Positions 3,073 through 31,718 of a DNA stretch of 64,000 nucleotides are shown one piece after another; position 1 is the first letter of the stretch, and each line of letters opens with the position of its first letter. The DNA comes from an uncultured Candidatus Micrarchaeota archaeon. Lineage in GTDB: Archaea > Micrarchaeota > Micrarchaeia > Anstonellales > Bilamarchaeaceae. Location of the stretch: NCBI GenBank assembly GCA_903828955.1, contig CAIKOA010000032.1:20141-84140 (forward strand). Reading direction: 5' to 3'. The translations under genes were made by a program, and so were the position numbers. The notes below the pieces were generated by a model. The model did not search any database. It saw only the letters and a list, made by a program, of their open reading frames with translations, and had not been told where the DNA came from.

Positions 3073-3456
3073 TTATTTTACTAGAATTCCATTCACTACG
3101 CCGTCCTGCCCGACGCGGTTGGTCACGCGGACCCGTCCGAGCTCGGTGTTCAGGATTGCGCCTTTAGTAATGATGTTTTGCCTCGCGTAGTGCGGATTGT
3201 GGCTCTCGGTAACGGCAGTGATTTTTGCCTTCTTGCATTTCCCTTCAATGATTACGTTCACAAAGGGCGCCCTCTTCAATCTGTTGCGGGCATTTCCGCC
3301 CCTCATCCTCTTGGTTTCTTTCCTTTCCTCAGCAGCAACCCTGGTCGAAGTGAATACTCCGCCAATGTGGGACTTCTTCTTGTCCCTTCCCTTTCTCCTC
3401 ATGCCGCCGGTTCCCGAGGAAACCTTCTTGAGCGTTGATTCGTGATATTGGTCCAT
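3073..3456 (-). CDS. rps8e: 30S ribosomal protein S8e
   Basis: RMRGGNARNRLK...NPHYARQNIITKGAILNTELGRVRVTNRVGQDGVVNGILVK matches the archaeal S8e consensus (ARRNIITKGAI..T..G.A.VTSRPGQDGVVNA). Length is 127 aa. Confidence 0.85.
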   Translation of the reverse strand: MDQYHESTLKKVSSGTGGMRRKGRDKKKSHIGGVFTSTRVAAEERKETKRMRGGNARNRLKRAPFVNVIIEGKCKKAKITAVTESHNPHYARQNIITKGAILNTELGRVRVTNRVGQDGVVNGILVK

Positions 3457-3508
3457 CTATACACCTATTTCTGTTAGAATAGTAGAGCATTCTATGAGGA
3501 GTAAGATT

Positions 3509-3516
3509 TTAAATAT
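3509..3516 (+). promoter_or_regulatory. TATA-box-like element (TTTAAATA) about 25 bp upstream of the cgi121 start
   Basis: The context is aagattttaaatatctccccctgcctataaacccATG. The spacing to the ATG at 3537 fits a short-leader archaeal promoter. Confidence 0.35.
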
Positions 3517-3536
3517 CTCCCCCTGCCTATAAACCC

Positions 3537-3932
3537 ATGATTTTCTTCAGCGCTTCCTCACCCCTTTCCGCAGAAAAACTGCTGGAACTAGCAAAGGAAA
3601 ACTCGTTCCTGCTTCTGAACCCCGAGAAAATCAACTGCGAAGAGGAGCTTCTTCTCGCGGAAAAGCTCACGGAAATTTCCATCAAGGAAAAGAAGGCAAT
3701 CGCAAAAACGAGGGAAAACGAATTCCTTCTCTGGCTTTCCGCAAAAAAAGACATTTCAAATGCATTCCGGGAATACGGGTTCAAATCCCCGGAAAAAATC
3801 CTGGTAATATCATTCTCGCAAACCAAAAAGCAGCTCCTCAAAATGCTGGAAGCAAAAGAGAAGAAACTAAATTTAAAAAAGAAAGCAACCCCTCTTGAAA
3901 TAGAAAGAATCTCCCTCTCAAGGGTTCTCTGA
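3537..3932 (+). CDS. cgi121: KEOPS complex subunit Cgi121
   Basis: Length is about 130 aa. FLLLNPEKINCEEELLLAEKL...KAIAKTRENEFLLWLSAKKDISNAFREYGFKSPEKILVISF follows the Cgi121 pattern (ILN.e.v....hvl.Ai..A.....iaKs...E.L...sg.rqI..Ai...G). The minus-strand ORF 3527..4039 is low-complexity antisense and was discounted. Confidence 0.6.
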   Translation: MIFFSASSPLSAEKLLELAKENSFLLLNPEKINCEEELLLAEKLTEISIKEKKAIAKTRENEFLLWLSAKKDISNAFREYGFKSPEKILVISFSQTKKQLLKMLEAKEKKLNLKKKATPLEIERISLSRVL

Positions 3933-3947
3933 CCACTTCCGTTTAAA

Positions 3948-5171
3948 ATGTTGCTGCCCATAGTATATAGTGGAAATTTCATGGGAGTTATAAAAAACGC
4001 TATAAAAGAAAGCGCGTTGCTGAAGATGGCCATAGGCATTGTTGCTGCCGGGGCTGTTATGGGAGTTTTATCCTATGGCGCCAGAAAGGCACTCAATATG
4101 CCGATGGATGAAGGCATCATGCGAACGCCCATCTCCGCGCAGGTGCAAACCAATTCCAAGCAGAAAAACACGGCCGAACTAATCCGGTTGTCGGATCAAC
4201 AATTTAAACAAACAATTGCAATGCTCGGCAGCAAGGCAACAAGCGATGTTGAAAAAGCAAGGGCCGCGCATATTCTGGGGGAAACAGGAGATAAAAGGGC
4301 CCTGCCGGCTCTTGTCAATGCGCTCCAGGATAATACGCTAGTTGATCCTGATGCGCGGGACGCGGTAGTATTTGCGCTTGCGAGGCTAAGAAGCAAAACA
4401 GCAATTCCATCTCTCGCTTGGGAATTGAAATCCCAGAATTCCACCCAGAATCCCAAGAACATCTACCCTCACCCCATAGATGTGGCATATGCGATTGGAG
4501 AGATTGCTGAAGCAAACCCCGGCAGCCCGGCATTATTTATAGCAGTGGACCCCCTGATTACTCTTCTGAGGAAAGGGCTTCCGGATAAAGTAGATCGAAA
4601 GTTTGCCATAATGCGTGAAGAGTTCGATCGTTACGATCGTTTGTTCGCTGGCTACGGTGGCCCGGCCAGGGACAAAGAAGCGGAGGAAAACTACGACAAA
4701 TACAGATACTGGGAGAACTTTATTCCCCATAGAATCGCAGCCGCGGAGGCTCTTGGAATGATAGGGAACAAAAAAGCAGTTCCCGAACTAATCAAGGCAA
4801 TGAGGTATGATTTTGTGCCAGTTAGGATGACGGCAGCGATAGCCCTTGGGGAAATAATCAGGAAGAACAAGGGCTACATGTATGTGGAAGGGGTATTGCC
4901 CCCGCTTTCATCCTTCGAAGTGTCCGAACGCGTGGTGGAAGCGAAACAAGAAGCGCTTAAAGGATTTGAAAATCCGGCATATGTGCCTGCATTAATCTCC
5001 CTGCTGGACCATGAATGGGGTTGCACGCGCCATGAAGCTGCTGTTTTGCTTGGCGAGCTTGGAGACAAGCGCGCATTGCCAGCACTGAAAAAACTTGCTG
5101 AAAACGACCCTAAGGAAGAGGTCAGAGAAGTTGCAAAAGAGTCAGTAAGCTGCATTCTGGAGCAGAACTAG
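3948..5171 (+). CDS. HEAT / PBS-lyase-like repeat protein with N-terminal membrane anchor
   Basis: There are multiple HEAT-like repeats (AHILGETGDKRALPALVNALQDN.., RIAAAEALGMIGNKKAVPELIKAMRYD.., RHEAAVLLGELGDKRALPALKKLAEND..). An N-terminal hydrophobic segment is present (MAIGIVAAGAVMGVL). Confidence 0.7.
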   Translation: MLLPIVYSGNFMGVIKNAIKESALLKMAIGIVAAGAVMGVLSYGARKALNMPMDEGIMRTPISAQVQTNSKQKNTAELIRLSDQQFKQTIAMLGSKATSDVEKARAAHILGETGDKRALPALVNALQDNTLVDPDARDAVVFALARLRSKTAIPSLAWELKSQNSTQNPKNIYPHPIDVAYAIGEIAEANPGSPALFIAVDPLITLLRKGLPDKVDRKFAIMREEFDRYDRLFAGYGGPARDKEAEENYDKYRYWENFIPHRIAAAEALGMIGNKKAVPELIKAMRYDFVPVRMTAAIALGEIIRKNKGYMYVEGVLPPLSSFEVSERVVEAKQEALKGFENPAYVPALISLLDHEWGCTRHEAAVLLGELGDKRALPALKKLAENDPKEEVREVAKESVSCILEQN

Positions 5172-5172
5172 C

Positions 5173-5218
5173 AACCCCTCTTGAAATAGAAAGGATCTCC
5201 CTTTCCCGCATTCTCTAA
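5173..5218 (+). pseudogene. Degenerate duplicate of the last ~45 bp of cgi121 (encodes ATPLEIERISLSRIL*), not joined to any ORF
   Basis: gcaacccctcttgaaatagaaaggatctccctttcccgcattctctaa is about 85% identical to 3888-3932 (gcaacccctcttgaaatagaaagaatctccctctcaagggttctctga), the end of cgi121. The two copies flank the HEAT-repeat gene. Confidence 0.6.
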
Positions 5219-5221
5219 ATT

Positions 5222-6859
5222 CTATTTCTTGGGTGGAATCGGAGTCGAAAGCCTCTGCAGTAAAACTTCCTCATCAATCGGGAGGTCTATTCCCAGAAGC
5301 TTGTGTATAAACATGAAAATCTCAACCACGCGCTTATTGTCTTTCGAGGTCTTCGCAGCCATCTCGCGCAAATCCATGTTCTTTCCAATCAATTGGTAGA
5401 GCATCACTCCTTCGCGCCCATACCGCTTATACACAGAATACCCGTCTTCCCCGTATTTTTTCCTTATGTCGTCCCTTGTCGCGGGCTTGAAGGCAATCAT
5501 CCCTTCCTTCTTCAATATCGCAAGTATCTCATATACTGTATAGAGCGGAACCCCGGAAACCAAAGAAAGCTCGACCGCATCCCTCATCCCATCAATCAGT
5601 TCCAGCACCTTCACTCCCGGCTGCCTGTACTTAATCAGCAGTGCGGCCTTCAACTGGATTTCCTTAATCAGGTTCCCTGCAAATTTCGCAGGCACATCCA
5701 GCACAAATTCCGGCCCCTCAGCCGCCTGCACCCCGGGCGCAACCCCCGGGCTCACGGTGCCTTCAATCATTGGCGCAAACCCGCCTTCTTCGTGCGCAGC
5801 AGGCGCGCGGGGCGGAGGGGTGACCGGCTTCTTCCCTCCCGGGTGCTCCAATTTGATTATGCCCTCCTTCTCCATGAAATCGAGCATTTCGATTAGTTTT
5901 GCCTCCGTAACCCCGGTCTGCTTCATTATCTCTTCCGCGGTCCGCTGCCCATCGATTAAATTGTAAATATCAAGGCCCTGCTGGCCATACTTCTCCTTTA
6001 TCTTCTTCTCACCCGGGGTAAGGAACGCTTCCTCTCCCTCAGGAGCCTCCTCTTCAGGTTTTTCCTCTTCCTCTTCGTGGGCTTCAATCTCTTTTTCCTC
6101 TTCCGCAGGCTTCTCCTCTTCCATTTCAAGGGGGATTACGTCCTCTTCCTCTTTCGGGGCTTCTTCCTTTTCCTCCTCTTCGGCCGGCGGTTTCTCCTCC
6201 TCTTCCGGAGGCTTTTCCTTCGCAGCCTCCTCTTCCTCTTTTGGAAGCTCCTCTTCCTCAGGGACTATTTCCCCTTCAGGGGCAATTGCCTTTTCCCCGG
6301 GAGCCTTCTCCTCCTCTTCCAGCGGGGCGATTTCCTCTTCAACCCCTAGCTTCTTTTTCTTTTTCGCAAGCTCTTCCGGAGGTGCAACTTCTTCTTCAAT
6401 AGCAGGTTTCTTTTTTGGGAGTTCCTCTTCAGGCGCCCTTTCCTCTTCCGCAGGCTTCTCTTCCTCAGGAGCAATTTCCTTTTCCTGGGCGGCCTCTTCC
6501 TCCTTTTTCTTCCCTTTTTTCAGAGGCTCCTCTTCAATCGGCCCTTCAGGCTCGGCAAGCTCGGTCTCCTCTTCAACTTCAGGAGGGGCCTCGCCTTCCG
6601 CGGGCTCAATCATTGCTTTTTCTTCCAAAAACGCGAGAATCTCAGCAAGTTTCACCTGCTCAAGGCCGGTCTTTTCCATCAATTCGCTTACGGTAATCCC
6701 GGTCTTCCTTATCGCGCGGTACACCTTCAGGCCGGTGCTGCCGAATTTTTTCACTACCCTGTTCTGGTTCTTGAATTTTTGCAGGGAAGTTTTCTCAACC
6801 TTCCTTATCGGGCGGTCGAGACCTTTGTCGCTGGCCATTGCGTACATTCCTCTTGGCAT
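5222..6859 (-). CDS. Protein with four TrmB-like winged-helix repeats separated by a ~200-aa extremely acidic E/P/K-rich linker
   Basis: There are four related ~45-aa modules (VYRAIRKTGITVSELMEKTGLEQVKLAEILAFLEEKAMIE; IYNLIDGQRTAEEIMKQTGVTEAKLIEMLDFMEKEGIIKLE; VLELIDGMRDAVELSLVSGVPLYTVYEILAILKKEGMIAFK; LYQLIGKNMDLREMAAKTSKDNKRVVEIFMFIHKLLG). The linker is low-complexity EEEKPAEEE... Confidence 0.6.
   Translation of the reverse strand: MPRGMYAMASDKGLDRPIRKVEKTSLQKFKNQNRVVKKFGSTGLKVYRAIRKTGITVSELMEKTGLEQVKLAEILAFLEEKAMIEPAEGEAPPEVEEETELAEPEGPIEEEPLKKGKKKEEEAAQEKEIAPEEEKPAEEERAPEEELPKKKPAIEEEVAPPEELAKKKKKLGVEEEIAPLEEEEKAPGEKAIAPEGEIVPEEEELPKEEEEAAKEKPPEEEEKPPAEEEEKEEAPKEEEDVIPLEMEEEKPAEEEKEIEAHEEEEEKPEEEAPEGEEAFLTPGEKKIKEKYGQQGLDIYNLIDGQRTAEEIMKQTGVTEAKLIEMLDFMEKEGIIKLEHPGGKKPVTPPPRAPAAHEEGGFAPMIEGTVSPGVAPGVQAAEGPEFVLDVPAKFAGNLIKEIQLKAALLIKYRQPGVKVLELIDGMRDAVELSLVSGVPLYTVYEILAILKKEGMIAFKPATRDDIRKKYGEDGYSVYKRYGREGVMLYQLIGKNMDLREMAAKTSKDNKRVVEIFMFIHKLLGIDLPIDEEVLLQRLSTPIPPKK
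6040..6560. repeat. GAA/GAG-rich coding low-complexity tract (acidic linker of the wHTH-repeat protein)
   Basis: Degenerate repeats of cctcttcctc / ttcctcttc occur on the plus strand, encoding E/P/K-rich peptide on the minus strand. Confidence 0.5.
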
Positions 6860-15337: not shown

Positions 15338-15367
15338 GCTCAAGTGCCTACCATTCGAGCCTTCCCC
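15338..15367. pseudogene. Degenerate duplicate of the 3' end of apgM (about 75% identity to 15530-15566)
   Basis: ctcaagtgcctaccattcgagccttccccagag aligns with ttaagttccaaccatccttgctttacccatagcg, the last codons plus stop of apgM on the minus strand. Confidence 0.4.
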
Positions 15368-15514
15368 AGAGCCCTTCAGGGGGAGCGCCCCCTAAAGGTC
15401 TTCATCGTGCCACCAAGGCACTGGAATGCAACGAATATTATGCGATAATTCCCTCTCCTTCTGCGCACACTAGGTGGCCTTGGCGGCGCGACACCCCAAG
15501 CAACCCCCCATAAT
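15368..15514. repeat. Hairpin-bearing small repeat element, long copy A
   Basis: It starts agagcccttcagggggagcgccccctaaaggtcttcatc and ends aagcaaccccccataa. The same termini occur at 19853-19910. It contains the perfect hairpin AGGGGG-AGCG-CCCCCT (15378-15393). Confidence 0.5.
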
Positions 15515-15532
15515 CTGATTAGTTAAATTTGA

Positions 15533-16729
15533 TTAAGTTCCAACCATCCTTGCTTTACCCATAGCGTTCAGCATTATGGGAAGCAAATCCCATCCGTCTA
15601 TGTGCCCCAATCCTCCGCCCATGCACATAACCTCAGAGAACTTCTTCTGCGTTCCCGTTCTGAACCCAGGCCCAAAAGCAAGAAGCGGAACCTCGTCCCC
15701 GGTATGCTTTCCAAATTTGCACGCAGTGGAGTGGTCCCCGGTAATAATGATGTTTGCCCCGCTCTTTCTCAAAAGCGGAACCAATTCCTTATCCACCCTC
15801 TCAATCATTTTCTTTTTCCCTTCGAAATTCTTGTCATGCGAAAAGCTGTCCGTCGCCTTCACGTGCACAAAAACAAAATCATGGGTTTCCAGCGCTTTAA
15901 TCGCCGCATTCCCCTTCGCCTTCAAATCCGTATCCTTTGAGCCGGTCGCCCCAGGAACCGCAATTACATCCATTCCAATATATTCCGCAACTCCCTTGTA
16001 GAGCGCGCCTCCCGCAACGCATGCGCCCGTAATCCCGTGCATCTTCTCAAAAGGCTCTACTTCCCTATATGCTCCAGCTCCTCTGCAAAGAACCGCATTC
16101 GCAGGAAGTTTCCTCCCGGAATTTTCCGGGGCTCTGGAAAGCGCATCCATCGCTCTCCTAGTAAACTCATTAAGAACGCGCGCAGTCCTTTCCGCACCCG
16201 CTTTCAATGCATGCGACTGCACTACCGCTCCCAATTCATGCGGGTCGGTAGGGGAAATCTCCGCGGAAAGCCCGCTCCCATGCAGCACAACCACTCCCCT
16301 GTGCTCCACAGTGCTCACAAATAAAACTTCAACCCCCTCAATATTCATTTTCCCTATCTTCTGCTGCAATTTCTTCCCTAATTCAGTAGGAATTCTTCCG
16401 GCTCTCCTATCGATAATCTGCCCGTTGCGCACGGTTGCAAAATTCGCCCTAAAAGCCACATCTCCCCTATGCAATTTTATTCCAGACCCAAGAGCTTCCA
16501 GAGGGCCTCTTCCCCCATAGAATTCCCAGTAAGGATATCCAAGAAGAGTTAAATGCGAAGTATCGCTTCCAGGCACATTCCCCCTTCCTATAGGTGAAAG
16601 CAGCCCAAGAATCCCGCTCTTGGCCATTTTATCCATATTCGGCTTCTTAGCCGCAGAAAGGGGCGTCCTTCCCTTTGCGTCCTGAAGGTCCCCGAGCCCG
16701 TCCATTATAAGTAAAATGCCTTTTGACAT
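15533..16729 (-). CDS. apgM: 2,3-bisphosphoglycerate-independent phosphoglycerate mutase, archaeal type
   Basis: ILLIMDGLGD...GRTPLSAAKKPNMDKMAKSGILGLL...IGRGNVPGSDTSHLTLLGY are ApgM metal-binding motifs. Length is 398 aa. Confidence 0.9.
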   Translation of the reverse strand: MSKGILLIMDGLGDLQDAKGRTPLSAAKKPNMDKMAKSGILGLLSPIGRGNVPGSDTSHLTLLGYPYWEFYGGRGPLEALGSGIKLHRGDVAFRANFATVRNGQIIDRRAGRIPTELGKKLQQKIGKMNIEGVEVLFVSTVEHRGVVVLHGSGLSAEISPTDPHELGAVVQSHALKAGAERTARVLNEFTRRAMDALSRAPENSGRKLPANAVLCRGAGAYREVEPFEKMHGITGACVAGGALYKGVAEYIGMDVIAVPGATGSKDTDLKAKGNAAIKALETHDFVFVHVKATDSFSHDKNFEGKKKMIERVDKELVPLLRKSGANIIITGDHSTACKFGKHTGDEVPLLAFGPGFRTGTQKKFSEVMCMGGGLGHIDGWDLLPIMLNAMGKARMVGT

Positions 16730-16832: not shown

Positions 16833-18884
16833 ATGTCTGGGGAGGATATTTCTTCATTAGTGTCCGTGTTCGAAGACTTCTTCACAGGCATCTATAAAGA
16901 ACGCATCAATAATGTTCTTGCTTCTTACCCGAACCGCCGCAGCCTTGAAGTAAACTACGACGATTTGGACAAATTCGACACCGCAGTTGCGGATAAACTC
17001 GTAAAAGAGCCCGAAGTGCTCACCGAAGCAGCCGAGGAGGCAATCCGCAACATGAACCTCACCCCTGCTTCCGGAGGCGAATTCAAGCCGCACGTGCGCT
17101 TCTTCAATGCTCCCGGAGGCGACAAGCTCACAATAGAACGGCTTAGTTCAGAACGCTTAAACGAACTCGTCTCTTTCCGCGGAATCGTAACCAAACGCAC
17201 GGACGTAATGCACAAAGTTAAGATTGCCCATTACGCCTGCCAGGCATGCGGCTCAGAACTGGATGCAGCCGTGACCCGCTCATTCAAGCCGCCCAAAATG
17301 TGCCCTTCCTGCAAAAAGCTCGCCTTAATCCCAAATGAGGAAAAATCCCGCTTCACGGATATGCAGAAATCCGAAACACAGGATTTGCTTGAGCGCGTTC
17401 GCGGAGGCGCCCCAGCCGCAAAAGTGGAACTCTGGTTCGAAGACGACATCGTGAACACGGTAACTCCCGGAGACAATATAGAAATAACCGGAATTCTCCG
17501 CATAAAGCCCACCCAGAACCTGAAGCAGAAAAACGATTTTCTTTTCACCCGCTACATAGAAGTAGTGCATGCAAAGAGCCTCAAGAGGGATTTCGAGGAG
17601 ATCGAGCTCACCCGCGAAGACATCGACCACATAAAAGAGATGGCCAAAGACCCGGACATAGAAAAGAAAATATTCTCTTCAATCGCGCCCGCAGTATATG
17701 GGTACACGGAAGTGAAGAAAGCCCTCGCGCTCCAGCTTTTCGGAGGCACCCGCGACAAGATGATGAAGGGCGGCGCGATGGTGAGGGATGACATCCACCT
17801 TCTCCTTATTGGAGACCCGGGTATTGCTAAAACCAGGTTCCTGAACTCCTCGGTTGCAATCGCGCCGAAAGCAATCTATGTGAGCGGAAAGAGCGTTTCC
17901 GGAGTCGGCCTCACCGCTTCCGCGGAAAAAGATGAGCTTGGGGATGGGGGCTGGACCCTCAAGGCCGGCGCCCTCGTTCTCGCTTCCGGCGGAATAGGCG
18001 CAATTGATGAATTCGACAAAATAGATGAGGAAGACCGCGGATCCCTTCACGAAGTGATGGAATCACAAACGGTTTCAATAGCAAAGGCCGGAATAGTCGC
18101 AAAATTCCGCGCCAAAACAGCAATCATCGCAGCCGCAAACCCGAAGCACGGCCGCTTCAACCAAACCAAGAACCTCGCAGACCAGTTCGATGTCCCGCCA
18201 TCCCTCCTTTCCCGTTTCGACCTTATTTTCCCGATAATTGACGTCCTTGATGAAGAAAAGGACCTGAACCTCGCAGAGCATATTCTCACTTCGCACATAA
18301 ATGCCGCAAAGGGAAAAATGCATGAAGACAGCGCAGACGAAATCGACCGCGAACTCCTTAGGAAATATATTTCTTACGCCCGCAGGGAGATAAAACCGGT
18401 TCTCAGCGAGGCTGCAAAGAACCGCATAAAGGATTTCTACCTTGATTTGAGGAGAAGGGGAAAATCCAGCGGCTCAGTCCCCATCACCCCCAGGTATTTG
18501 GAAGGGATGGTCCGCCTTTCCGAAGCGCACGCAAAGATGCGCCTTTCCGATGTTGTCGAACTTGCGGATTCGGAAGCGGCAATCGGCCTAATGGAATATG
18601 TCCTCAAGAAAGTGATGACCGACCAGGAAACCGGCCGCTTCGATGTGGACATAATCACCACTGGAAAAGCCCGCTCGCAAGTTGAAAGAATAGAAACAAT
18701 TCTAGATATCCTAAAAGAGAAAACCCGCGACCAGGAAGCGGTTCCCAGGGACGAAGTCCTCAGAGCCGCGGAAGCTTCCGGAATGGACCCCTCCCTTGCA
18801 AAGCGCATCCTCCAAGAACTAATGCACAAAGGCGAAGTTTACGAAAAAGAGCCGGGCTGGATAGCGCTGGTAGGAGAGAAATAG
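16833..18884 (+). CDS. mcm: Minichromosome maintenance (MCM) replicative helicase
   Basis: Walker A is LLIGDPGIAKTRFL. The Zn finger is CQACGSELD...CPSCKK. The arginine finger / MCM box is IIAAANPKHGRFN...SLLSRFDLIF. Length is 683 aa. Confidence 0.9.
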   Translation: MSGEDISSLVSVFEDFFTGIYKERINNVLASYPNRRSLEVNYDDLDKFDTAVADKLVKEPEVLTEAAEEAIRNMNLTPASGGEFKPHVRFFNAPGGDKLTIERLSSERLNELVSFRGIVTKRTDVMHKVKIAHYACQACGSELDAAVTRSFKPPKMCPSCKKLALIPNEEKSRFTDMQKSETQDLLERVRGGAPAAKVELWFEDDIVNTVTPGDNIEITGILRIKPTQNLKQKNDFLFTRYIEVVHAKSLKRDFEEIELTREDIDHIKEMAKDPDIEKKIFSSIAPAVYGYTEVKKALALQLFGGTRDKMMKGGAMVRDDIHLLLIGDPGIAKTRFLNSSVAIAPKAIYVSGKSVSGVGLTASAEKDELGDGGWTLKAGALVLASGGIGAIDEFDKIDEEDRGSLHEVMESQTVSIAKAGIVAKFRAKTAIIAAANPKHGRFNQTKNLADQFDVPPSLLSRFDLIFPIIDVLDEEKDLNLAEHILTSHINAAKGKMHEDSADEIDRELLRKYISYARREIKPVLSEAAKNRIKDFYLDLRRRGKSSGSVPITPRYLEGMVRLSEAHAKMRLSDVVELADSEAAIGLMEYVLKKVMTDQETGRFDVDIITTGKARSQVERIETILDILKEKTRDQEAVPRDEVLRAAEASGMDPSLAKRILQELMHKGEVYEKEPGWIALVGEK

Positions 18885-19777: not shown

Positions 19778-19852
19778 CCCAAGATTAAAGCACTCTAAAA
19801 TCAATAACCACTTGCATCTTAGAAGCAGAATAAGGCCTGACCTCCCTCTCAA
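19778..19852. pseudogene. Degenerate duplicate (~80% identity) of the last ~70 bp of trm5
   Basis: ttaaagcactctaaaatcaataaccacttgcatcttagaagcagaataaggcctgacctccctctcaaag aligns with 19911-19980, ttaatctattttaaaatcaataactacttgcatcttagacgcagagtacggtcttacttccctcgcaaat. Confidence 0.6.
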
Positions 19853-19910
19853 AGAGCCCTTCAGGGGGAGCGCCCCCTAAAGTGCTTCACCCCCAGCAAC
19901 CCCCCATCAC
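19853..19910. repeat. Hairpin-bearing small repeat element, short copy B (internal-deletion derivative of copy A)
   Basis: agagcccttcagggggagcgccccctaaagtgcttcacccccagcaaccccccatcactt shares both termini with 15368-15514. The hairpin lies at 19863-19878. It abuts the trm5 stop at 19911. Confidence 0.55.
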
Positions 19911-20960
19911 TTAATCTATTTTAAAATCAATAACTACTTGCATCTTAGACGCAGAGTACGGTCTTACTTCCCTCGCAAATACAAATTCAATTTTTCTTCC
20001 GGCTTTACGCGCAGCCTCCTCCACAAACCCGCGCGCCTGCGTAAACCCATTTTCCACATCCACAAAAGAATAGAAGTGCACAATGCACCCGGGTTTCGCA
20101 GCAAGGAAAGCAACATCCAAAAACTCGTGCGCATCCTTTGGGAGCGGCATCGCAATCCGATCAGCCCACCCTACAAACCGTTCCTTCACAACCGCCCGCG
20201 CATCCCCGAGAATCGCTTCCACATTCTTCAGCTTATTCAATCTGATGTTCCCCTCAAAATAGCGGACCGCATCCGGGTTCAGTTCAATCCCAACCACGTG
20301 CGCACAAGGCGAAAATTTCCCAATTTCCAGTGCAAAAGGGCCCACCCCTGCAAAAGGAACGAGCACCTTTTCCCCATCCTTCACAAGTTCGCACAGCCTC
20401 TTCCTCTCATGCGAAAGCCTGGGAGAAAAATACACCTTCCCAACATCCAGGTTCATGCGCACCCCATTTTCCGAGTAAGTGGTTTCCGTTCTTTTTTCCC
20501 CTGCAAGGTGCGCAAGCTTCGTAATCCGAAACTCCCCCTCCCGCCCGCCCGCTTTCTGCAAAACAACTTTTGCGCGCGCTTCAGATTCCAATAAAATCTC
20601 TCCAATCTCCGTCTTCTTCCCTTCCAATTCCCGGGGAATATCGACAATAACTATGTCCCCAACAATATCATAAGAGGAAAGCACCCCCTTGGCATGCTCT
20701 TCCCCAAGCAATTCGATTAATTTCTGCCTGAAATTCTTCCTAATTTCGCGCGCCTCAAGCTCAACCCGTACAATTTCCAATCCAGAGCCGGAAAGTTTCT
20801 CTTCCGCTTCCTCTCCCCCAACTACCGGAAGGTAGACATGCTCTCCCCTCTGCATTGGAAATCTCATCTTATCCATTAATCCCATCCCCACGAGTTTTTT
20901 GCGCGTCTCTTCCGCATTCTTTTTCCGGATGCGCACCGCAGGGCCCTTTTTCTTAACCAT
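19911..20960 (-). CDS. trm5: tRNA (guanine37-N1)-methyltransferase Trm5 / TYW2 family (Met-10 domain)
   Basis: YDIVGDIVIVDIP...YFSPRLSHERKRL...VLVPFAGVGPFALEI are the Trm5/Taw2 family motifs. Confidence 0.8.
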   Translation of the reverse strand: MVKKKGPAVRIRKKNAEETRKKLVGMGLMDKMRFPMQRGEHVYLPVVGGEEAEEKLSGSGLEIVRVELEAREIRKNFRQKLIELLGEEHAKGVLSSYDIVGDIVIVDIPRELEGKKTEIGEILLESEARAKVVLQKAGGREGEFRITKLAHLAGEKRTETTYSENGVRMNLDVGKVYFSPRLSHERKRLCELVKDGEKVLVPFAGVGPFALEIGKFSPCAHVVGIELNPDAVRYFEGNIRLNKLKNVEAILGDARAVVKERFVGWADRIAMPLPKDAHEFLDVAFLAAKPGCIVHFYSFVDVENGFTQARGFVEEAARKAGRKIEFVFAREVRPYSASKMQVVIDFKID

Positions 20961-25109: not shown

Positions 25110-26303
25110 ATGCAGGCGCCAGCGGTCTTTATGCTTCCGCTACTTCAGGGGACACTTCATGACCTATCTCCTGACATAATGCCGCCCTTCGTATATATCG
25201 CCCTCATCACAGCCGCGGGCATAATCGCCCTCTACTATCTTCTTGGAAAATTCCTGGATTCCCCGCAGATAAACGCATTTGCAAAGGAGGAATTCTCCCA
25301 ATTGGTCTTCTCAATAGGAATAGTCGGGCTTTGGTTTTTCTTCTACCAGGTCGCAACAGCCATTTATTCAGCCGCCGTATGCGGGTCAGAGTCGTGCAAC
25401 ATGTTCGAGGTTGCCTTCTACTCCCTCTCAATCGTCCAATCCAAGCTTTTTTCTGCCTACATCAGCTACCTCTCAATTGAAACCTTCGTGAGCATTTTCT
25501 CAACAATAGGGTTCTCCCTCCCTCTAGGTTTCCCAATCCTCGGGGTAAAATGGCTAAGCCTCTCTCCGCTGGGGGGCCTTGGCCTCCTTAGCAACGTAAT
25601 AGTAACGATTACGGAATCCCTGGGTATGCTCCTTGGGCTCGCCATAGGGCGGCAGCAGCTCCTTGCCCTATTTGAGCAGATAGTGCCCGCGGTTTTGCTT
25701 CCCATGGGGCTCCTCCTGCGCTCGCTCCCGTTTACGCGCTCCACCGGCTCCAGCCTCATCGCATTCTCCTTCGCCGCCTTTTTCATTTTCCCTGCCTCAA
25801 TTGCGTTTTCCCACTACCTGATGTTTTCACTTTACCAACCCACCTTCATCCCCCAGGCCCCCACCTTTGACGGGTTCTGCTTTGACCCCAATAACCCGAC
25901 TGACAAGGCAGCCGCCTCAACCGAATTGCAGGATAACATCGCGCGCGCCGAACATTTCATGACCGACGACATGGACCCAAGCTATGACAGTTATTGGTTC
26001 AGGCTCTCAGAGCTCACCGTGGATTCCGGCAAAGCCCTCAAGTCGACATATAGCAACGGCAAAGACTTCATTTCGGATACCTTCTCCCTCAGCAACCTGG
26101 TCTTCGCGCTCGTCAAGCCGACCACGTTCGGATACATATTCTTCACCCTCGTCACCGACCGCCTGCAGGACGTTGCCCAGCTTGCGGTCCTCACAACCGT
26201 AACTTTCGTATTGGAAATAATAATAACCGTTACCGGATACCGTGCGATTTCAGGAATTCTTGGAGGCGAGATGGAAATCCTCGGCCTCACAAAGGTGGTC
26301 TGA
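25110..26303 (+). CDS. Paralog 1 of a six-member tandem family of polytopic membrane proteins (unknown function)
   Basis: It has N-terminal TM + GKFLDSPQ, the LLPMGLLLRSLPFTRSTGSSLIAF signature, a variable exo-domain, and a C-terminal TM + GGEMEILGLTKVV*. Confidence 0.6.
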   Translation: MQAPAVFMLPLLQGTLHDLSPDIMPPFVYIALITAAGIIALYYLLGKFLDSPQINAFAKEEFSQLVFSIGIVGLWFFFYQVATAIYSAAVCGSESCNMFEVAFYSLSIVQSKLFSAYISYLSIETFVSIFSTIGFSLPLGFPILGVKWLSLSPLGGLGLLSNVIVTITESLGMLLGLAIGRQQLLALFEQIVPAVLLPMGLLLRSLPFTRSTGSSLIAFSFAAFFIFPASIAFSHYLMFSLYQPTFIPQAPTFDGFCFDPNNPTDKAAASTELQDNIARAEHFMTDDMDPSYDSYWFRLSELTVDSGKALKSTYSNGKDFISDTFSLSNLVFALVKPTTFGYIFFTLVTDRLQDVAQLAVLTTVTFVLEIIITVTGYRAISGILGGEMEILGLTKVV

Positions 26304-27239
26304 ATGCTCGCTCTGGACCCCTTCTACCTGGAAATAATCGGAATCGCAGTAGTTGGGATGGCCGCATACATCGCAATCCTCTACATGGCATCCAAATTCC
26401 TCGGCCGCCCGCAGCTCACAGCTTACGCAAACGTTGAGCTGAACCAGCTCGTCGCATCAATCGCAATCCTGGTACTGGCGTTCTTCATAGCGGAATTCGC
26501 AACCACTTTCTCGCAGGCGGTTTCGGGCAGTGACGGCACCCCCATAGACATCTCGGTCAATTTCCTCTCAAAGGTGGTGAACAGGGGCGTGCTCCCGACC
26601 TATTTCGACCTTGTGCGCAGCGAAGTGGTCCTCTCTTACTTCAATTCGCTTGAATACAGGATGGGCCCGGGCGTATGGAACTGGACGACAAAGGCGGTCC
26701 CTGGCCTTGAGCCAATCCTCTCGATAGTGCGCATGCTCGTATTCACCTACACCGCGCTTTATGGAACCCTCAGCATCCAGATAGTCATTTTCCGCTTCAT
26801 AGACGCATTCATGTACACTTTCTTCCTTCCCGCGGGGGTAGTGCTGCGTTTTTTCCCGCCGACGCGGGATGCGGGAATATTCCTCATAGTGATGGCAATC
26901 GCATTCCAGTGCTTTTTCCCCATGCTTTACGCAATCAACTCCACCGCCCTTGATAGCATGTGGTCTCTCCACGGATGGTCGAATGGATACGACCCGCAGG
27001 CAGAGGACATCCAATATTCAGAAGGGATAAGGGCGCAGGCAAGCACAATCCTGGATTTCGGAAACACGATTTCAGACTTTCTCCCGATCTTCCAGCCGTT
27101 TTCGTTCCTCACTTTTCTCCCAACCCTGGACCGCGTGGCCGAAATCTCGCTTGCAGCATTATTCCTCCCTGCATTCTCCATGGGGCTCACGATTGCATTT
27201 ATTAACGCCACAACAAAATTCCTAACCGGAAAGGGATAG
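26304..27239 (+). CDS. Paralog 2 of the six-member membrane protein family
   Basis: It has SKFLGRPQ and FLPAGVVLRFFPPTRDAGIFLIVM. The start overlaps the previous stop (TGAATG). Confidence 0.6.
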   Translation: MLALDPFYLEIIGIAVVGMAAYIAILYMASKFLGRPQLTAYANVELNQLVASIAILVLAFFIAEFATTFSQAVSGSDGTPIDISVNFLSKVVNRGVLPTYFDLVRSEVVLSYFNSLEYRMGPGVWNWTTKAVPGLEPILSIVRMLVFTYTALYGTLSIQIVIFRFIDAFMYTFFLPAGVVLRFFPPTRDAGIFLIVMAIAFQCFFPMLYAINSTALDSMWSLHGWSNGYDPQAEDIQYSEGIRAQASTILDFGNTISDFLPIFQPFSFLTFLPTLDRVAEISLAALFLPAFSMGLTIAFINATTKFLTGKG

Positions 27240-27240
27240 C

Positions 27241-28452
27241 ATGTTGCTCTTGGAACAGATGTTTTCAGACTGGTCGTTGGTGGCCGTTGCGGCCGTGATG
27301 GCAACCACCGCGGTCTATGTGCTCGTCTACCTTTTCGGCCAGTTCCTTTCCGATGAAAAAGTAATCGCCTATGCAAAGCTCGGCTTCGTCGACCTCATCT
27401 ATTCGGGATTCCTGCTCGTAGCCACGGTCTTCATCCTCGGGCTTGCAACCGAAGCCGCAAACGGGTTTGTGGAAACGGCCCATCCCCTCGGCGCGCAAAT
27501 CTGCAGCACCGGCTACGAGGTTCTGCATCCCGATTATGCAAACATGCCCTGCTACATCCGCGGCGCAAAGAACTACCTGGACACCCTCTATATAGAAGGC
27601 AAGGCATTCAACTATCAACTGCTCACGATGAGCATCTGGTTCTCCTTTTTCCAGGGAATAGGGATAAACGCGGATTTCCATGAGCACGCAACCGGAACCG
27701 TCCAGTTTTCGCCAATAGGGGGCGCATTTACCGTTCCCCTGGGGATATATACCTACATGTTTGAATTCGCCTCGAAAGCCCTCATAATGATAAGGTTCCA
27801 GCAGTTCTTCCTCTACTTCATAAACATCGCCCTTTTCCCCGCCCTCACCGTGATTGGGCTGATCCTGCGAATATTGCCGTTCACGCGCAAGCTCGGTGGG
27901 CTTCTGATGGCAATTGGCATCTCACTTTTCTTCGTTTTCCCAATGTTCTATGTAATGGGGGGAATAGTGCTCGAGAACATCCGCAAGGATCAGACGAACC
28001 CGAGCGACCCGGTAATCGGCACCTTCAATTTCGACAGCAACGCATTCTACCAAAAACTGGGCGTTGCAGCAACGGCCGACCAGCAGGACTATGAAGCGCT
28101 TCTAAACGACCCGAATTTCGCATACAAATCCGCAGGGGACCTCCAGAATAAGGTGAAAGGCCTCAACTATTGCACCGCCTCAACAGCCGGTGACATATCC
28201 ACCCTCCAGACAATCGCGGACACCGTGAAGCAGCTCGTCTATGCAATTGATTTCACAGGCATCGTCTCCAATGAAGACTACATCAATTCGCTTGTGGGCC
28301 CAGGAGGCGTAATCGACGGAACCGCGCGCCTCGTATTCTTTTCAATGTTCTTCACATTGCTCTCAGTTTTCTCAACGGTTGGCGCAGTAAGGGCGCTGTC
28401 GCCGCTCCTGGGGGGAGATACGGAAATCGCAGGGCTTACGCACCTGATATGA
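27241..28452 (+). CDS. Paralog 3 of the six-member membrane protein family
   Basis: It has GQFLSDEK and LILRILPFTRKLGGLLMAIG. The C-terminus is GGDTEIAGLTHLI*. Confidence 0.6.
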   Translation: MLLLEQMFSDWSLVAVAAVMATTAVYVLVYLFGQFLSDEKVIAYAKLGFVDLIYSGFLLVATVFILGLATEAANGFVETAHPLGAQICSTGYEVLHPDYANMPCYIRGAKNYLDTLYIEGKAFNYQLLTMSIWFSFFQGIGINADFHEHATGTVQFSPIGGAFTVPLGIYTYMFEFASKALIMIRFQQFFLYFINIALFPALTVIGLILRILPFTRKLGGLLMAIGISLFFVFPMFYVMGGIVLENIRKDQTNPSDPVIGTFNFDSNAFYQKLGVAATADQQDYEALLNDPNFAYKSAGDLQNKVKGLNYCTASTAGDISTLQTIADTVKQLVYAIDFTGIVSNEDYINSLVGPGGVIDGTARLVFFSMFFTLLSVFSTVGAVRALSPLLGGDTEIAGLTHLI

Positions 28453-28465
28453 GGGATAAAACGGA

Positions 28466-29605
28466 ATGCACGCAAACATGAAAATCCTGCTCGTTTTCCT
28501 GCTTCTCCTCAGCTGCGCGTTTGCAGATGACACCCCGAGCACCACGGATTTTTCCAACCTGGACACGACCGCAGGCAAGATAGACGACCAGATAACCGCC
28601 TCTCTTGAAGATTCCGGCATCCTCACAGGGGCCTGCTCCGCAGACCCGGATGGCAGCCTTGTCTCGCTCCTTGGGCCGGCAATGCTTGCGCTCATCCTGG
28701 TCTCCTTCGGAATCGCCATCTTCTACATGGTGGGAAAATTCCTGGATTCCCCGCCCCTTGTGGCCATTGCAAGGAGCGAAACACTTGAAGTGATCAACAC
28801 CGCATTGATAGTGATACTCTTCGCCGCCTTTGTCGCATTTGCAGGAAACATTGTTTTCGGGGGGCAGCCAGACGCGGTTTTCAACAAGTCGATAAACTAT
28901 TCTTCTGTAATGATACATAAGATCTCCAAGGACATGTTCTGGCTTTCAGCATTGAACACCCTCATCCACATGCTCTATGCGGCGCCGCTGCGCCTCGGAG
29001 TCCTCTACCACGCAGTACGCTTCAACCTCGGTGGCCTGCTGAAACCCTTCGTGGACGGAATCGGGACGATGGCGTCCCTCCTTTCATTTGCCCTCGGCGA
29101 GTGGATAGCCAACCTGAATGTGCTCTGCTTTATCCAGAAATTCGTGCCAACGGTACTTCTTCCAATCGGGGTGATTTTCCGCAGCCTTCCCCAGACAAGG
29201 GGAGGGGGCAACGCGATAATCGGGTTCGCAGTCGCGCTCTTCCTTGTTTATCCATCGATGATATACCTGAACTTCCAGGCGTACCAATACCAGTTCGGGA
29301 CCGTTGAGTCAAGGAGCAATATCCAGGAAATAACCAAGGACTTCACGCTCTATAGCGGGGTTGGCGCCTTTACGGTCGGCTTCATCTGGCTTCGCTCAAT
29401 TACCGGAATGCTGATCGGCCTTCCTTTCCTGCTAGGGCTCATCACAACCGTAATAGACGTTTATGCGGATGTCCTGTACACTGTTTTCGTGCTGAGCATC
29501 ATGCTTCCGCTATTGAACATCTTCATCACGCTCACAGTGGCGCGTGAGGTTGCAAAATACCTGGGCACTGAGATCAATATAAGCGCATTCACCAAGCTGA
29601 TATGA
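28466..29605 (+). CDS. Paralog 4 of the six-member membrane protein family (has cleavable-looking N-terminal signal peptide)
   Basis: The N-terminus is MHANMKILLVFLLLLSCAFADD. It has GKFLDSPP and LLPIGVIFRSLPQTRGGGNAIIGF. The C-terminus is GTEINISAFTKLI*. Confidence 0.6.
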   Translation: MHANMKILLVFLLLLSCAFADDTPSTTDFSNLDTTAGKIDDQITASLEDSGILTGACSADPDGSLVSLLGPAMLALILVSFGIAIFYMVGKFLDSPPLVAIARSETLEVINTALIVILFAAFVAFAGNIVFGGQPDAVFNKSINYSSVMIHKISKDMFWLSALNTLIHMLYAAPLRLGVLYHAVRFNLGGLLKPFVDGIGTMASLLSFALGEWIANLNVLCFIQKFVPTVLLPIGVIFRSLPQTRGGGNAIIGFAVALFLVYPSMIYLNFQAYQYQFGTVESRSNIQEITKDFTLYSGVGAFTVGFIWLRSITGMLIGLPFLLGLITTVIDVYADVLYTVFVLSIMLPLLNIFITLTVAREVAKYLGTEINISAFTKLI

Positions 29606-29611
29606 GGGGTA

Positions 29612-30685
29612 ATGAAAATGGGGATACTGGCAACGGCGCAAATCTGCAACCATTCTTCAATCACCGAAGTGTTCTTCATCCCCGAGTGGCAATCCCTTGC
29701 GTTCCTTGCGCTTGTCTGCTCTGCGGCGCTGCTCGCGATTGCCTACATGCTGAACCGCTTCCTCAACAATGAAGAAGGGCAGGTCGCCCTGAAGCTGGAG
29801 CTTTTCGAGCTCTTCGCAACCGCATTCGTAATCTTCGTTTCTATAGGGCTTGTGCAGTCTGCCTGCGAGGTCGAAGCCAGCGGCATATTCTTCGATCCCC
29901 AGCACATGCAGGCGGGAGACAATCTTTTTGATGCGGCCGAAGCGGTCCTCCAGGATTTCTCCGTGGACCTTGCACTGGCGATGACGGCCCTGCACACTGT
30001 GTACATCCCCATTGATTTCCAGACCACCACCACGCTCACGATGCAGCCCATGGGCCTAGGTACCGTCATCCAGCCCACTTCAGGAATCGGCGCAATCGTG
30101 AAGCCGGCAATGCTGAACGCGATGCAGGCAATAGCGCTTGCATACATCGTAATACGCGCGGAGCAGTTCGTCCTTGATTTCTCCACCTATGCGCTCATCA
30201 CTTTCTATTTCCCTATAGGCATCATTCTCCGTTCCTTCACCCCTACCAGAAGGATAGGGGGGACCATAATCGGGCTCGTGCTCGGGCTCGTGCTGGTGTT
30301 CCCGTTCCTCATCATCCTCAACGGCGCGGTTGCCTTCAGCATCTGGCCGAACGTAAATCCCTTTTCGTTCACCGATTCGGATTGGGATAACCTGAAAAAC
30401 TTCACAACCGGCTCCTTTACCGGGATGTTTGGCTCGCTTACCGGCATTTCGGACCTTGCGAATCCGTTCAATTTCTTCTATGCGATCAACCAGCTAATCG
30501 GGGGCACATTCGGGGCAATAATCGGCTTCGTGATATTCTTCTTCATGCGCAGCGCAGGGGCCGCCTTTTTCATAGGGCTCTTTTTCCCCGCCCTCAACAC
30601 CCTCCTGCTGGTCACAACGGTCCGATACATTACAAAATCCCTCGGTGAAGAGATAGATGTGACAAACCTGACGAGGCTGATCTGA
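29612..30685 (+). CDS. Paralog 5 of the six-member membrane protein family
   Basis: It has NRFLNNEE and YFPIGIILRSFTPTRRIGGTIIGL. The C-terminus is GEEIDVTNLTRLI*. Confidence 0.6.
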   Translation: MKMGILATAQICNHSSITEVFFIPEWQSLAFLALVCSAALLAIAYMLNRFLNNEEGQVALKLELFELFATAFVIFVSIGLVQSACEVEASGIFFDPQHMQAGDNLFDAAEAVLQDFSVDLALAMTALHTVYIPIDFQTTTTLTMQPMGLGTVIQPTSGIGAIVKPAMLNAMQAIALAYIVIRAEQFVLDFSTYALITFYFPIGIILRSFTPTRRIGGTIIGLVLGLVLVFPFLIILNGAVAFSIWPNVNPFSFTDSDWDNLKNFTTGSFTGMFGSLTGISDLANPFNFFYAINQLIGGTFGAIIGFVIFFFMRSAGAAFFIGLFFPALNTLLLVTTVRYITKSLGEEIDVTNLTRLI

Positions 30686-30686
30686 A

Positions 30687-31718
30687 ATGGAGTCCTGGGA
30701 AACAATCACGATAATCGCGGTACTGCTCTCCTTTGCGATTTCCGCGGTCATGATAATGTTCTCGCGGCTTTTCCAGCTCCCCGCCCTTGAGCAGTGGGCA
30801 AAAGCCGAAATGGTCTTCACAATCTCCACAGTGGTGCTCGTAATCTGCATTTTCGCGCTGATTGATGTGATCCAGCCCGTAATTGTGCAGATAGTGAGGG
30901 ACATGACCGAAGCGAATTTCGCCTCCACCACCGGGCAAACCCTCCTTTCCCCTGACAATGCAACCCTGATGGATTTCGCCCTTGCCTACATGAAATCCGT
31001 CTTCACCTGCATAACGGGGATCCTCAAATTCCTTATGAAGCTCTCTTTCCCAGCAGAGATGGCCGCCTCTTTCACCACCGATGCCTTCATGTTCGACCTT
31101 GTGACTGGCTGGGCGTTCAAGAGCGTGGTGCAAAGCATCCGGAACGTCGCCAACTACATGACCTTCACTATCTTCATATACTATGTTTTCGTGCACATAA
31201 TGCGCTTCATCCAGGCAACCGCATTAACTGTTTTCCTTCCAGTTGGAATCGTGCTGAGGCAGTTCCCCCCCACCCGCGGCTCCGGCGCGTTCATACTCGC
31301 ATTCGCCCTTGGATTTTATTTCGTATTCCCGTTTGCCTACATAATCGCAGTGAACATCGCTCCGCAGACAATGGCTTGCCCGATAGTTCCTGAGTTCGAT
31401 TACATTCCCGCAAGCTGCGGCTCCGCAAACCCAGACAGCGCATTCGCGTCCACGCTCTGGGTTGAATCAAGCGGAAACAGGGTTTTGAACTTCCTGAACT
31501 CCCTTGGCACATACATTTCCGATGTTTCCCTTGACCCGTTCAGCGTGGTTCCGGATGCCCTTGAATTTACCGGAGGGCAGCTGACCGGTTTTGCAATCAA
31601 CCTCTGCTGCCTGCCCTTCCTTGCGATGGTAATCACGATGAGCTTCATCCTTTCCACAACCAACCTTTTCGGCGCCAATCTGCCGGAGGTGGGAAGGGGA
31701 TTCGTCAAGTTAATCTAA
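30687..31718 (+). CDS. Paralog 6 of the six-member membrane protein family
   Basis: It has FLPVGIVLRQFPPTRGSGAFILAF. The C-terminus is LPEVGRGFVKLI*. It begins 1 nt after the paralog 5 stop. Confidence 0.6.
   Translation: MESWETITIIAVLLSFAISAVMIMFSRLFQLPALEQWAKAEMVFTISTVVLVICIFALIDVIQPVIVQIVRDMTEANFASTTGQTLLSPDNATLMDFALAYMKSVFTCITGILKFLMKLSFPAEMAASFTTDAFMFDLVTGWAFKSVVQSIRNVANYMTFTIFIYYVFVHIMRFIQATALTVFLPVGIVLRQFPPTRGSGAFILAFALGFYFVFPFAYIIAVNIAPQTMACPIVPEFDYIPASCGSANPDSAFASTLWVESSGNRVLNFLNSLGTYISDVSLDPFSVVPDALEFTGGQLTGFAINLCCLPFLAMVITMSFILSTTNLFGANLPEVGRGFVKLI

Follow-up and report, generated by a model that had tools for sequence, protein, structure and literature searches.

C-terminal displacement at Rhs loci is the closest described counterpart of the locus reported here. 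For these loci, a circular intermediate and a single crossover have been proposed, through which the old tip is shunted downstream (Jackson et al. 2009, PMC2935791). The displacement of effector ends in Vibrio cholerae's type VI secretion system (T6SS) has been explained by a proposed homology-facilitated illegitimate recombination (HFIR) (Kirchberger et al. 2017, PMC5361080). In such systems, the incoming DNA combines a short homology to the conserved part of the resident gene with new sequence. The gene gains the incoming end, and its old 3' end stays intact but unattached downstream, after a fragment of conserved sequence. We found a likeness of this arrangement in a 64-kb stretch (64,000 nt, hereafter the window) of contig CAIKOA010000032.1 from an uncultured Candidatus Micrarchaeota archaeon. 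There, a HEAT-repeat gene has been inserted at the end of cgi121, a gene encoding a KEOPS subunit. A new end is attached to cgi121, and what appears to be the old one lies unattached behind the insert, following a conserved fragment.

The repeat search of the window yielded a direct repeat of 47 nt (3884–3930 and 5170–5216, 87% identity, spacing 1286). Extended through the stop codons, TGA at 3930–3932 in copy 1 and TAA at 5216–5218 in copy 2, the two copies (3884–3932 and 5170–5218) are identical at 42 of 49 nt. The 24 leading nucleotides (AGCAACCCCTCTTGAAATAGAAAG) are the same in both, and all 7 differences fall within the final 25 nt. Copy 1 encodes ATPLEIERISLSRVL and a stop, the C-terminus of the 131-aa CGI-121 family protein. 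Copy 2 encodes ATPLEIERISLSRIL and a stop in a frame that differs from that of the HEAT open reading frame (ORF), and it is part of no listed ORF. The first-pass annotation had described a repeat of about 45 bp of the cgi121 3' end after the HEAT stop, which still encodes the gene-end peptide yet is attached to nothing, and both statements were borne out. The repeat is far above chance: the top off-diagonal ungapped score in the segment 3400–5400 was 32, at offset 1286, while 60 dinucleotide shuffles of the segment gave a mean of 11.6 (standard deviation 1.3, maximum 16). The cgi121–HEAT junction is present in at least 5 independent assemblies and is therefore not an assembly artefact. Three of these also share an identical 51-nt gap, holding the remnant, between the HEAT gene and the convergent winged-helix (wHTH) gene that follows. 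In an alignment of 22 Cgi121 homologues, mostly of 130–132 aa, the last 15 residues were the most conserved part of the protein, with an invariant C-terminal E.ERISL.R block.

The insertion is supported by empty sites in all related loci. The HEAT gene is absent in each of the seven orthologous loci recovered, for which the identity of Cgi121 to that of the window is 91% (L011), 86% (L012), 85% (a JGI contig), 84% (L005), 80% (L013), 63% (L007/L008) and 59% (L010). In every locus, cgi121 stands directly before the wHTH gene with no HEAT ORF between them, and the convergent gene comes 0–6 nt after cgi121 or overlaps it by 8 nt. In contrast, cgi121 is followed by the HEAT gene in all same-species contigs, which carry an identical Cgi121 and come from several independent assemblies. 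The source names of the homologues are those of a Micrarchaeota-type archaeon. The insertion is missing from L011, whose cgi121 DNA is 88% identical to that of the window, and so it postdates that split and is recent. These results uphold the proposal that the HEAT gene was inserted at the end of cgi121 and regenerated its C-terminal helix. They contradict the accompanying suggestion of an old, eroded integration, since the remnant has kept its frame and stop, and what distinguishes the copies is allelic variation.

In the relatives, the end and flank of cgi121 align colinearly with copy 2 and its downstream sequence, as in L011 (...GAAAGGATTTCCCTTTCCAGAATTCTTTAG ttatttcttgggcgg...) compared with the window (...GAAAGGATCTCCCTTTCCCGCATTCTCTAA attctatttcttgggtgg...). 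The RIL terminus of copy 2 is that of the three closest homologues (P0002–P0004), whereas the working gene ends in RVL. Over its last 25 nt, copy 1 has 9, 8 and 8 differences from the close relatives L011, L012 and L005, and 4 from each of the distant relatives L013 and L010. For copy 2, the order is reversed, with 5, 5 and 6 differences from the close relatives and 9 from each of the distant ones. The upstream 371 nt of cgi121 diverge from L011 by 10.2%, and the 66 nt immediately preceding the last bin contain 0–1 differences. At this divergence, about 2.6 differences would be expected in the last 25 nt of copy 1 instead of the 9 found. On this comparison, the downstream copy is the displaced original end in its ancestral position beside the wHTH gene, and the end of the working gene is foreign. 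Native sequence of the chromosome thus runs to about 3907 and resumes at about 5170–5194, and the part from 3908 to the end of the HEAT gene is foreign. The downstream copy, first described as a decayed gene end, is an intact native one that shares its terminus with the closest relatives.

The insert of 1,286 bp (about 1.3 kb) reads as a very compact cassette of a gene-end copy, a putative promoter and one ORF. Its TATA-like TTTAAAA (3942–3948) stands 33 nt upstream of the ATG at 3981, where public gene calls place the HEAT start (396 aa), and not at 3948. The protein has a single N-terminal hydrophobic segment (residues 12–30, Kyte–Doolittle 2.14), a predicted membrane anchor, and the HEAT repeats occupy the remainder through the C-terminus. 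It is an orphan: among 5.8 billion proteins, only a 100% self cluster was found, and the next match was 45% identical over 36% of the query. No relative of the gene occurred in the viral contigs or plasmids searched, and PADLOC and PHROGs gave only generic HEAT matches, with no link to defence or phages. The GC content of the gene (0.49 compared with 0.51 ± 0.03), its GC content at third codon positions (GC3; 0.50 compared with 0.60 ± 0.06) and its mid-range codon-usage distance reveal no anomaly relative to the neighbours, so the donor was probably a related archaeon.

Pfam scans of the genes of the window, the insert included, gave no integrase or transposase domain, and the repeat search gave no terminal inverted repeats (TIRs) at the insert ends, in accordance with the first-pass annotation. 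A 16-nt inverted repeat (3925–3940 and 5114–5129, TTCTCTGACCACTTCC and GGAAGAGGTCAGAGAA, 94% complementary) is the sole one, and it is subterminal and asymmetric. One of its arms crosses the boundary of the insert together with the cgi121 stop, and 40 nt separate the other from the HEAT gene's end; the significance of the pair is borderline and it is probably due to chance. No attC-like or dif-like fold was detected in the 49-nt repeat, its copies scoring z = 0.0 and -1.7 relative to shuffles. In the viral contigs searched, neither a 23-nt core, nor the junction of the HEAT stop and the repeat, nor the foreign-type end was matched, and cgi121 was not present, so that no free or viral form was found. 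The features of the locus are collected in Table 1 with those of two parallel sites in the window.

Table 1. Coordinates in the window of the features at the cgi121 locus and at the trm5 and apgM sites.
Feature	Position	Strand	Evidence
cgi121 (KEOPS subunit), 131 aa, intact, last 25 nt apparently foreign-type	3537–3932	+	Pfam CGI-121 PF08617, E 4e-9
Repeat copy 1 (attL-like), working cgi121 end ATPLEIERISLSRVL and stop	3884–3932	+	Repeat search, alignment of relatives
24-nt block identical in both copies (AGCAACCCCTCTTGAAATAGAAAG), putative crossover zone	3884–3907	+	Also identical in relative L011
Last 25 nt of cgi121, apparently foreign-type	3908–3932	+	Differences from relatives
Cassette leader (48 nt) with TATA-like TTTAAAA (3942–3948), possible promoter	3933–3980	+	Read from the sequence
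HEAT-repeat gene, 396 aa, stop TAG (5169–5171) overlapping the start of copy 2	3981–5171	+	HEAT_2 E 2e-29, HEAT_PBS 2e-20
Repeat copy 2 (attR-like), apparently displaced native cgi121 end ATPLEIERISLSRIL and stop, in no ORF	5170–5218	+	Colinear with end and flank in relatives
Convergent winged-helix (TrmB/HTH-like) gene, 545 aa	5222–6859	-	Pfam; synteny
apgM site: working end 15533–15559, 21-nt spacer, 144-nt mini-element version 15368–15511, remnant GKARMVGT and stop 15340–15367	15340–15559	-	
trm5 site: working end 19911–19979, GTG spacer, 55-nt mini-element 19853–19907, apparently native remnant FEREVRPYSASKMQVVIDFRVL and stop 19785–19853	19785–19979	-	

When every gene end of the window was scanned, exactly three genuine cases emerged, namely cgi121, trm5 (19911–20960, minus strand) and apgM (15533–16729, minus strand). 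The pattern of gene end, insert and second gene end that had been pointed out at the latter two was thereby confirmed. At trm5, the gene-end copy is 69 nt long and 81% identical. The peptide of the remnant is the native end of the close relatives, and the working end (FAREV...DFKID) is unique within a set of 120 homologues. The remnant is also closer to all three relatives (13, 9 and 11 differences) than the working end is (22, 13 and 19), which suggests that the remnant is native over its whole length and the working end foreign. The left edge of the foreign tract was not resolvable by sliding divergence, the relatives being about 20–23% diverged. Replacement of the whole trm5 gene was rejected: its codon usage is unusual, but the homologues show the same identity ladder (86/82/81%) as Cgi121. 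The copies at apgM have 8 differences in 27 nt, with the peptide and stop kept throughout; the native-versus-foreign comparison gave mixed signals over just these 27 nt. As a side observation, apgM and trm5 take second and third place for deviant codon usage in a ranking of 32 genes of 250–650 aa. Both genes, together with cgi121 and the HEAT gene (3537–5171), are among those with the lowest GC3 in the window (0.50–0.53, mean 0.60).

The inserts at trm5 and apgM are versions of a non-coding mini-element with conserved sharp ends (ATGGGGGGTTGCTKGGGGTG ... CTTTAGGGGGCGCTCCCCCTGAAGGGCTC), a strong 10-bp terminal hairpin and a variable middle, copies of which are definable by the end pattern ATGGGGGGTTGCTKGGGGTG...AGGGGGCGCTCCCCCTGAAGGGCTC. 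At both sites, the right-hand remnant begins exactly at the end of the mini-element. The mini-element was not found in the loci of the relatives, but it is present in three contigs of metagenome Ga0209777 (L018 500–554, L019 901–996 and L021 1097–1151; 55, 96 and 55 nt). Imperfect direct repeats of 26–44 nt bound it in L018 and L019, the right-hand copy starting exactly at the element end. Altogether, the right joint is exact at the element end in all five mini-element insertions. The cgi121, trm5, apgM and L018 sites lie in convergent gene pairs, and the three pairs of the window abut or lie within about 50 nt of each other in the relatives. Roughly 120 kb of the relatives' loci were scanned, and no further gene-end duplications were found.

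Some further observations concern the surroundings of the mini-element. In L018, it sits between convergent genes and beside a ParE-toxin pair. The end of the L021 copy provides the stop codon of a weak HEAT-like ORF. The L019 copy is located about 60 nt from an apparent tRNA-Arg(UCU) gene with a T-arm intron, recognized by eye with no ARAGORN call. Matches to the left-end (LE) motif in the viral contig L022 and to the right-end (RE) motif in L020 were discarded as chance, both lying within high-GC genes. No Rfam family passed the gathering threshold anywhere in the window; with the cutoff relaxed to E ≤ 5, the regions of the insert and of the mini-element gave nothing beyond noise.

The differences between the copies conserve the encoded peptides. 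In the cgi121 repeat, the 7 differing nucleotides hit 5 sense codons and the stop. Four codons are synonymous (one of them AGG to CGC), one changes V to I, and TGA becomes TAA, so that coding is kept by 6 of the 7 differing nucleotides. Random placement of an equal number of substitutions keeps the peptide as well with p = 0.002 (cgi121), 0.0013 (trm5) and < 2e-5 (apgM); for the three sites jointly, p is < 2e-5, no simulation having reached this match. Taken together, the three sites have 18 synonymous or stop-preserving codon differences and 5 amino-acid changes. This favours the view that the copies are two orthologues whose sequences drew apart in separate lineages under selection, and it argues against a duplication in situ followed by neutral decay. 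A diversity-generating retroelement (DGR) with its template and variable repeats was also considered. It was rejected, as the differences (A/G, C/T, A/C, A/C, G/C, G/A, G/A) are not adenine-specific; Pfam scans revealed no reverse transcriptase domain in the window.

We propose, with about even confidence, an additive integration, in which the end of the chromosomal cgi121 recombined once with an incoming copy of this gene end to which the cassette was linked. The incoming DNA would have carried a cgi121 3'-end copy joined to the HEAT gene, most simply as a small circle or a tandem copy. A single reciprocal crossover inside the 24-nt identical block would then add a unit of 1,286 bp, made up of the last 25 nt of the foreign cgi121, the 48-nt leader, the HEAT gene and the 24-nt conserved block. 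In the product, cgi121 would end in the cassette-borne RVL and be followed by the HEAT gene with its own promoter. The native end (RIL) would be shifted 1,286 bp downstream, still beside the convergent wHTH gene. A circular donor would carry the junction ...GGAGCAGAACT/AGCAACC...GGGTTCTCTGA/CCACTTCCG..., with the joints at the slashes. Either host homologous recombination or a trans-acting site-specific recombinase could have been the recombining agent.

One crossover in the 24-nt block would explain both junctions, the foreign working end, the displaced native end and the overlap of the HEAT stop with the repeat. Because the last 15 residues are the most conserved, the only long DNA identity between lineages would lie there, and this is also the segment that must be restored. 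The retained native copy probably keeps the 3' flank of the wHTH gene. This flank is T-rich on the minus strand (CCTTTCTATTTC) and may be a terminator, which might be the selective reason for the retention of the remnant.

Several points weigh against this proposal. The searches brought up neither a circular form nor a donor genome nor another copy of the HEAT gene, which makes the structure of the donor purely conjectural. An identity of 24 nt is short for RecA/RadA-type recombination, and the 64-kb window contains no recombinase gene that we could find. The distinction of foreign from native at cgi121 is based on just 25 nt. At trm5, native-like sequence begins at nt 5 of the remnant and the longest identity tract is 14 nt (positions 31–44), so a crossover would have to lie at the extreme left edge, outside that tract. 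The unit at trm5 would also need a double-stranded circle of 127 bp, which is physically implausible.

No tiny circle is required if the donor was linear. DNA from a related archaeon with the HEAT gene right behind its cgi121 may have entered by HFIR or one-ended break repair, an explanation that we consider possible though on balance unlikely. The conserved cgi121 end would have served as the anchor, and the far end would have been joined illegitimately 49 nt upstream of the recipient stop, so that the end was duplicated and not replaced. The final structure would be identical, and this is the mechanism proposed for the displacement of T6SS effectors (PMC5361080). It fits trm5 better than a crossover does, the whole working end there looking foreign and the whole remnant native, and short microhomologies are found at the right junctions (AGAA..AG at the HEAT site, GCT.T at apgM). 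However, the illegitimate joint would have to coincide exactly with both the stop codon of the HEAT gene and the first position of the 24-nt block, and the exact right joints of the mini-element insertions are not expected of random end-joining. Moreover, cgi121–HEAT synteny was seen in none of the relatives sampled, and the foreign tract does not reach upstream of 3884, as judged from the near identity to L011 in the preceding 66 nt.

The exactness of these right junctions, recurring around a conserved mini-element, leaves room for a homology-guided insertion system in this Micrarchaeota lineage. A dedicated recombinase or nuclease would act at the element boundary, in place of generic recombination; we regard this idea as tentative and doubtful. 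Mobile units, from the 55-nt mini-element to a whole-gene cassette, would travel with the last 26–72 nt of the host segment in which they had previously resided. The carried copy would serve as an address, and insertion would take place exactly at the start of the matching segment, with a preference for tight convergent junctions. Both neighbouring genes would thereby keep their 3' ends.

Equally doubtful is a site-specific integration by a tyrosine-type integrase, encoded elsewhere or lost, which would make the HEAT cassette a remnant like a cis-mobilizable element (CIME), bounded by attL and attR. Its attP would have resembled the cgi121 3' end acquired in an earlier host. The classic mark of such an event is a pair of imperfect direct repeats, here of 47–49 bp, at a conserved gene's 3' end, where element DNA restores the reading frame, and archaeal att sites span a size range that includes this repeat. 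Recombination between attB and attP likewise leaves an identical core with diverged arms after it. Against these likenesses, no integrase occurs in the insert or the 64-kb window, the repeat has no inverted-repeat or hairpin substructure, and its core and junction are on no viral or plasmid contig. The use of other target sequences by the same mini-element at trm5 and apgM would also not be explained by a fixed-site integrase.

Duplication of the target in situ, through a transposition-like staggered cut or a tandem duplication, with later decay of the downstream copy, is very improbable. The flanking direct repeats do have this look, and their lengths vary across the sites (28, 49 and 69 nt) as in break-repair duplications. 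However, the copy supposed to be decaying retains its frame, its stop and the ancestral peptide and matches the relatives, and the differences are overwhelmingly synonymous. The copies differ by 14–30%, although the insertion is younger than the split from a lineage with 88%-identical cgi121, and neither TIRs nor a transposase is present. The weakest explanation, that the HEAT gene is ancestral here and was lost in all relatives or that the locus is an assembly chimera, is effectively refuted: HEAT genes do come and go in the clade, but seven relatives (59–91%) lack this one and have a tight or overlapping cgi121/wHTH pair, repeated precise loss is unparsimonious and would not yield a duplicated gene end, and the same junctions recur in independent assemblies.

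Within the clade, HEAT-repeat genes seem to form an accessory class that varies. A different one, encoding 357 or 311 aa and having its own TATA-like leader, is found in three relatives (L023 4752–5825, L024 6067–7002, L025 4257–5192). It sits between the RsmB/F methyltransferase gene and a separate PUA-domain gene, which in the window are 1 nt apart (21897/21899); no flanking duplication was seen there. Other relatives show small differences in the cgi121 neighbourhood. L005 carries a gene for an IS200-type Y1 transposase, as well as an additional DUF2878-like gene (302–754 and 3277–3906), between metRS and the S8e gene. In L007/L008, a PAS_10 gene (L007 5621–6004) lies between the S8e gene and cgi121 and overlaps the cgi121 start. 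The MCM gene of L023 (8745–12272, 1175 aa) contains an intein with a LAGLIDADG domain, whereas those of the window (16833–18884, 683 aa) and L024 (684 aa) do not.

Three other regions of the window are worth describing. The wHTH gene has a long acidic, E/P/K-rich low-complexity region with internal repeats at about 6000–6600. Six tandem paralogues (25110–31718, 311–403 aa) share a C-terminal motif (...LTKLI/LTHLI) and have the highest GC3 (0.66–0.71); the four scanned gave no Pfam match. At 62301–63962 on the minus strand, a radical-SAM protein has an N-terminal LAGLIDADG_3 match (residues 53–112), which could be an intein or what is left of a homing endonuclease. ARAGORN detected no tRNA genes in the window.

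Genomes of DPANN archaea are very small and densely packed with genes, convergent ones often lying end to end or overlapping. Where convergent genes abut, there is no neutral intergenic space for the insertion of a gene. The cgi121 locus is a clean, dated example of how a gene can be gained in a tightly packed genome without breaking its neighbours: the incoming DNA appears to supply its own copy of the interrupted essential gene end, and the native end remains for the neighbour. Nucleotide-level resolution of the event was possible, and the foreign copy can be distinguished from the native one. The same solution occurs three times within 16 kb of one genome and, around a tiny conserved element, in metagenome contigs as well, an indication that gene flow in these symbionts repeatedly takes this route. 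For annotation, short in-frame 'ghost' gene ends should be taken as a warning, since they mark recent insertions.

Integrative elements that target the 3' ends of genes, including integrase-less CIMEs of the ICESt1/ICESt3 type and archaeal tRNA-targeting elements, also offer a comparison. They share with the insert imperfect attL/attR repeats of tens of bp, a target gene restored by element sequence, an element-borne copy that mirrors the previous host, and empty sites in relatives; at cgi121, the flanking repeats are 49 nt long and the empty sites were found in 7 loci. In contrast to such elements, the insert has no integrase or excisionase in it or nearby, and no recombinase gene was found in the window. 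It carries one cargo gene (1.3 kb), its repeat has no recombinase-binding substructure, and its sister insertions occupy other target sequences. The HEAT insert resembles an integron cassette in being a compact single-ORF unit, with a recombination site that abuts or overlaps the stop and no mobility gene of its own. Its recombination site is a copy of the host gene end, and it seems to have its own promoter; attC-like palindrome, integron integrase, attI and array are all missing.

The mini-element of 55–144 nt is similar to miniature inverted-repeat transposable elements (MITEs), being short, multicopy, structured and non-coding, with sharp ends and a variable middle, and occurring at several loci and on metagenome contigs. 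It differs in having no TIRs and in its flanking repeats, which are long (about 26–72 nt), variable and imperfect, one apparently native and one foreign-type. TIRs and a short, fixed target-site duplication, which characterize transposons, insertion sequences (IS) and MITEs, are not seen at the HEAT insert either, where the flanking repeat is 49 nt and imperfect, and no transposase was found. We rejected the integron cassette, IS, MITE, casposon and DGR as identities of the HEAT insert, which lacks their defining features.

The comparison thus returns to the Rhs and T6SS systems. An attached end that is foreign and a detached one that is native are indicated both at cgi121, from 25 nt and the colinear flank, and at trm5. 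The known systems exchange different toxin tips together with immunity genes over hundreds of bp of homology, and they diversify polymorphic toxins. At cgi121, the setting is not that of a polymorphic toxin: the two ends code for one and the same peptide, that of a housekeeping KEOPS subunit, and the homology is 49 nt, of which 24 are identical. An unrelated HEAT gene, to which PADLOC and PHROGs assign nothing specific, makes up the cargo (at trm5, a 55-nt element), and the host is a DPANN archaeon. Taken by itself, the HEAT locus represents an event of a known kind, here well resolved and set in an unusual host.

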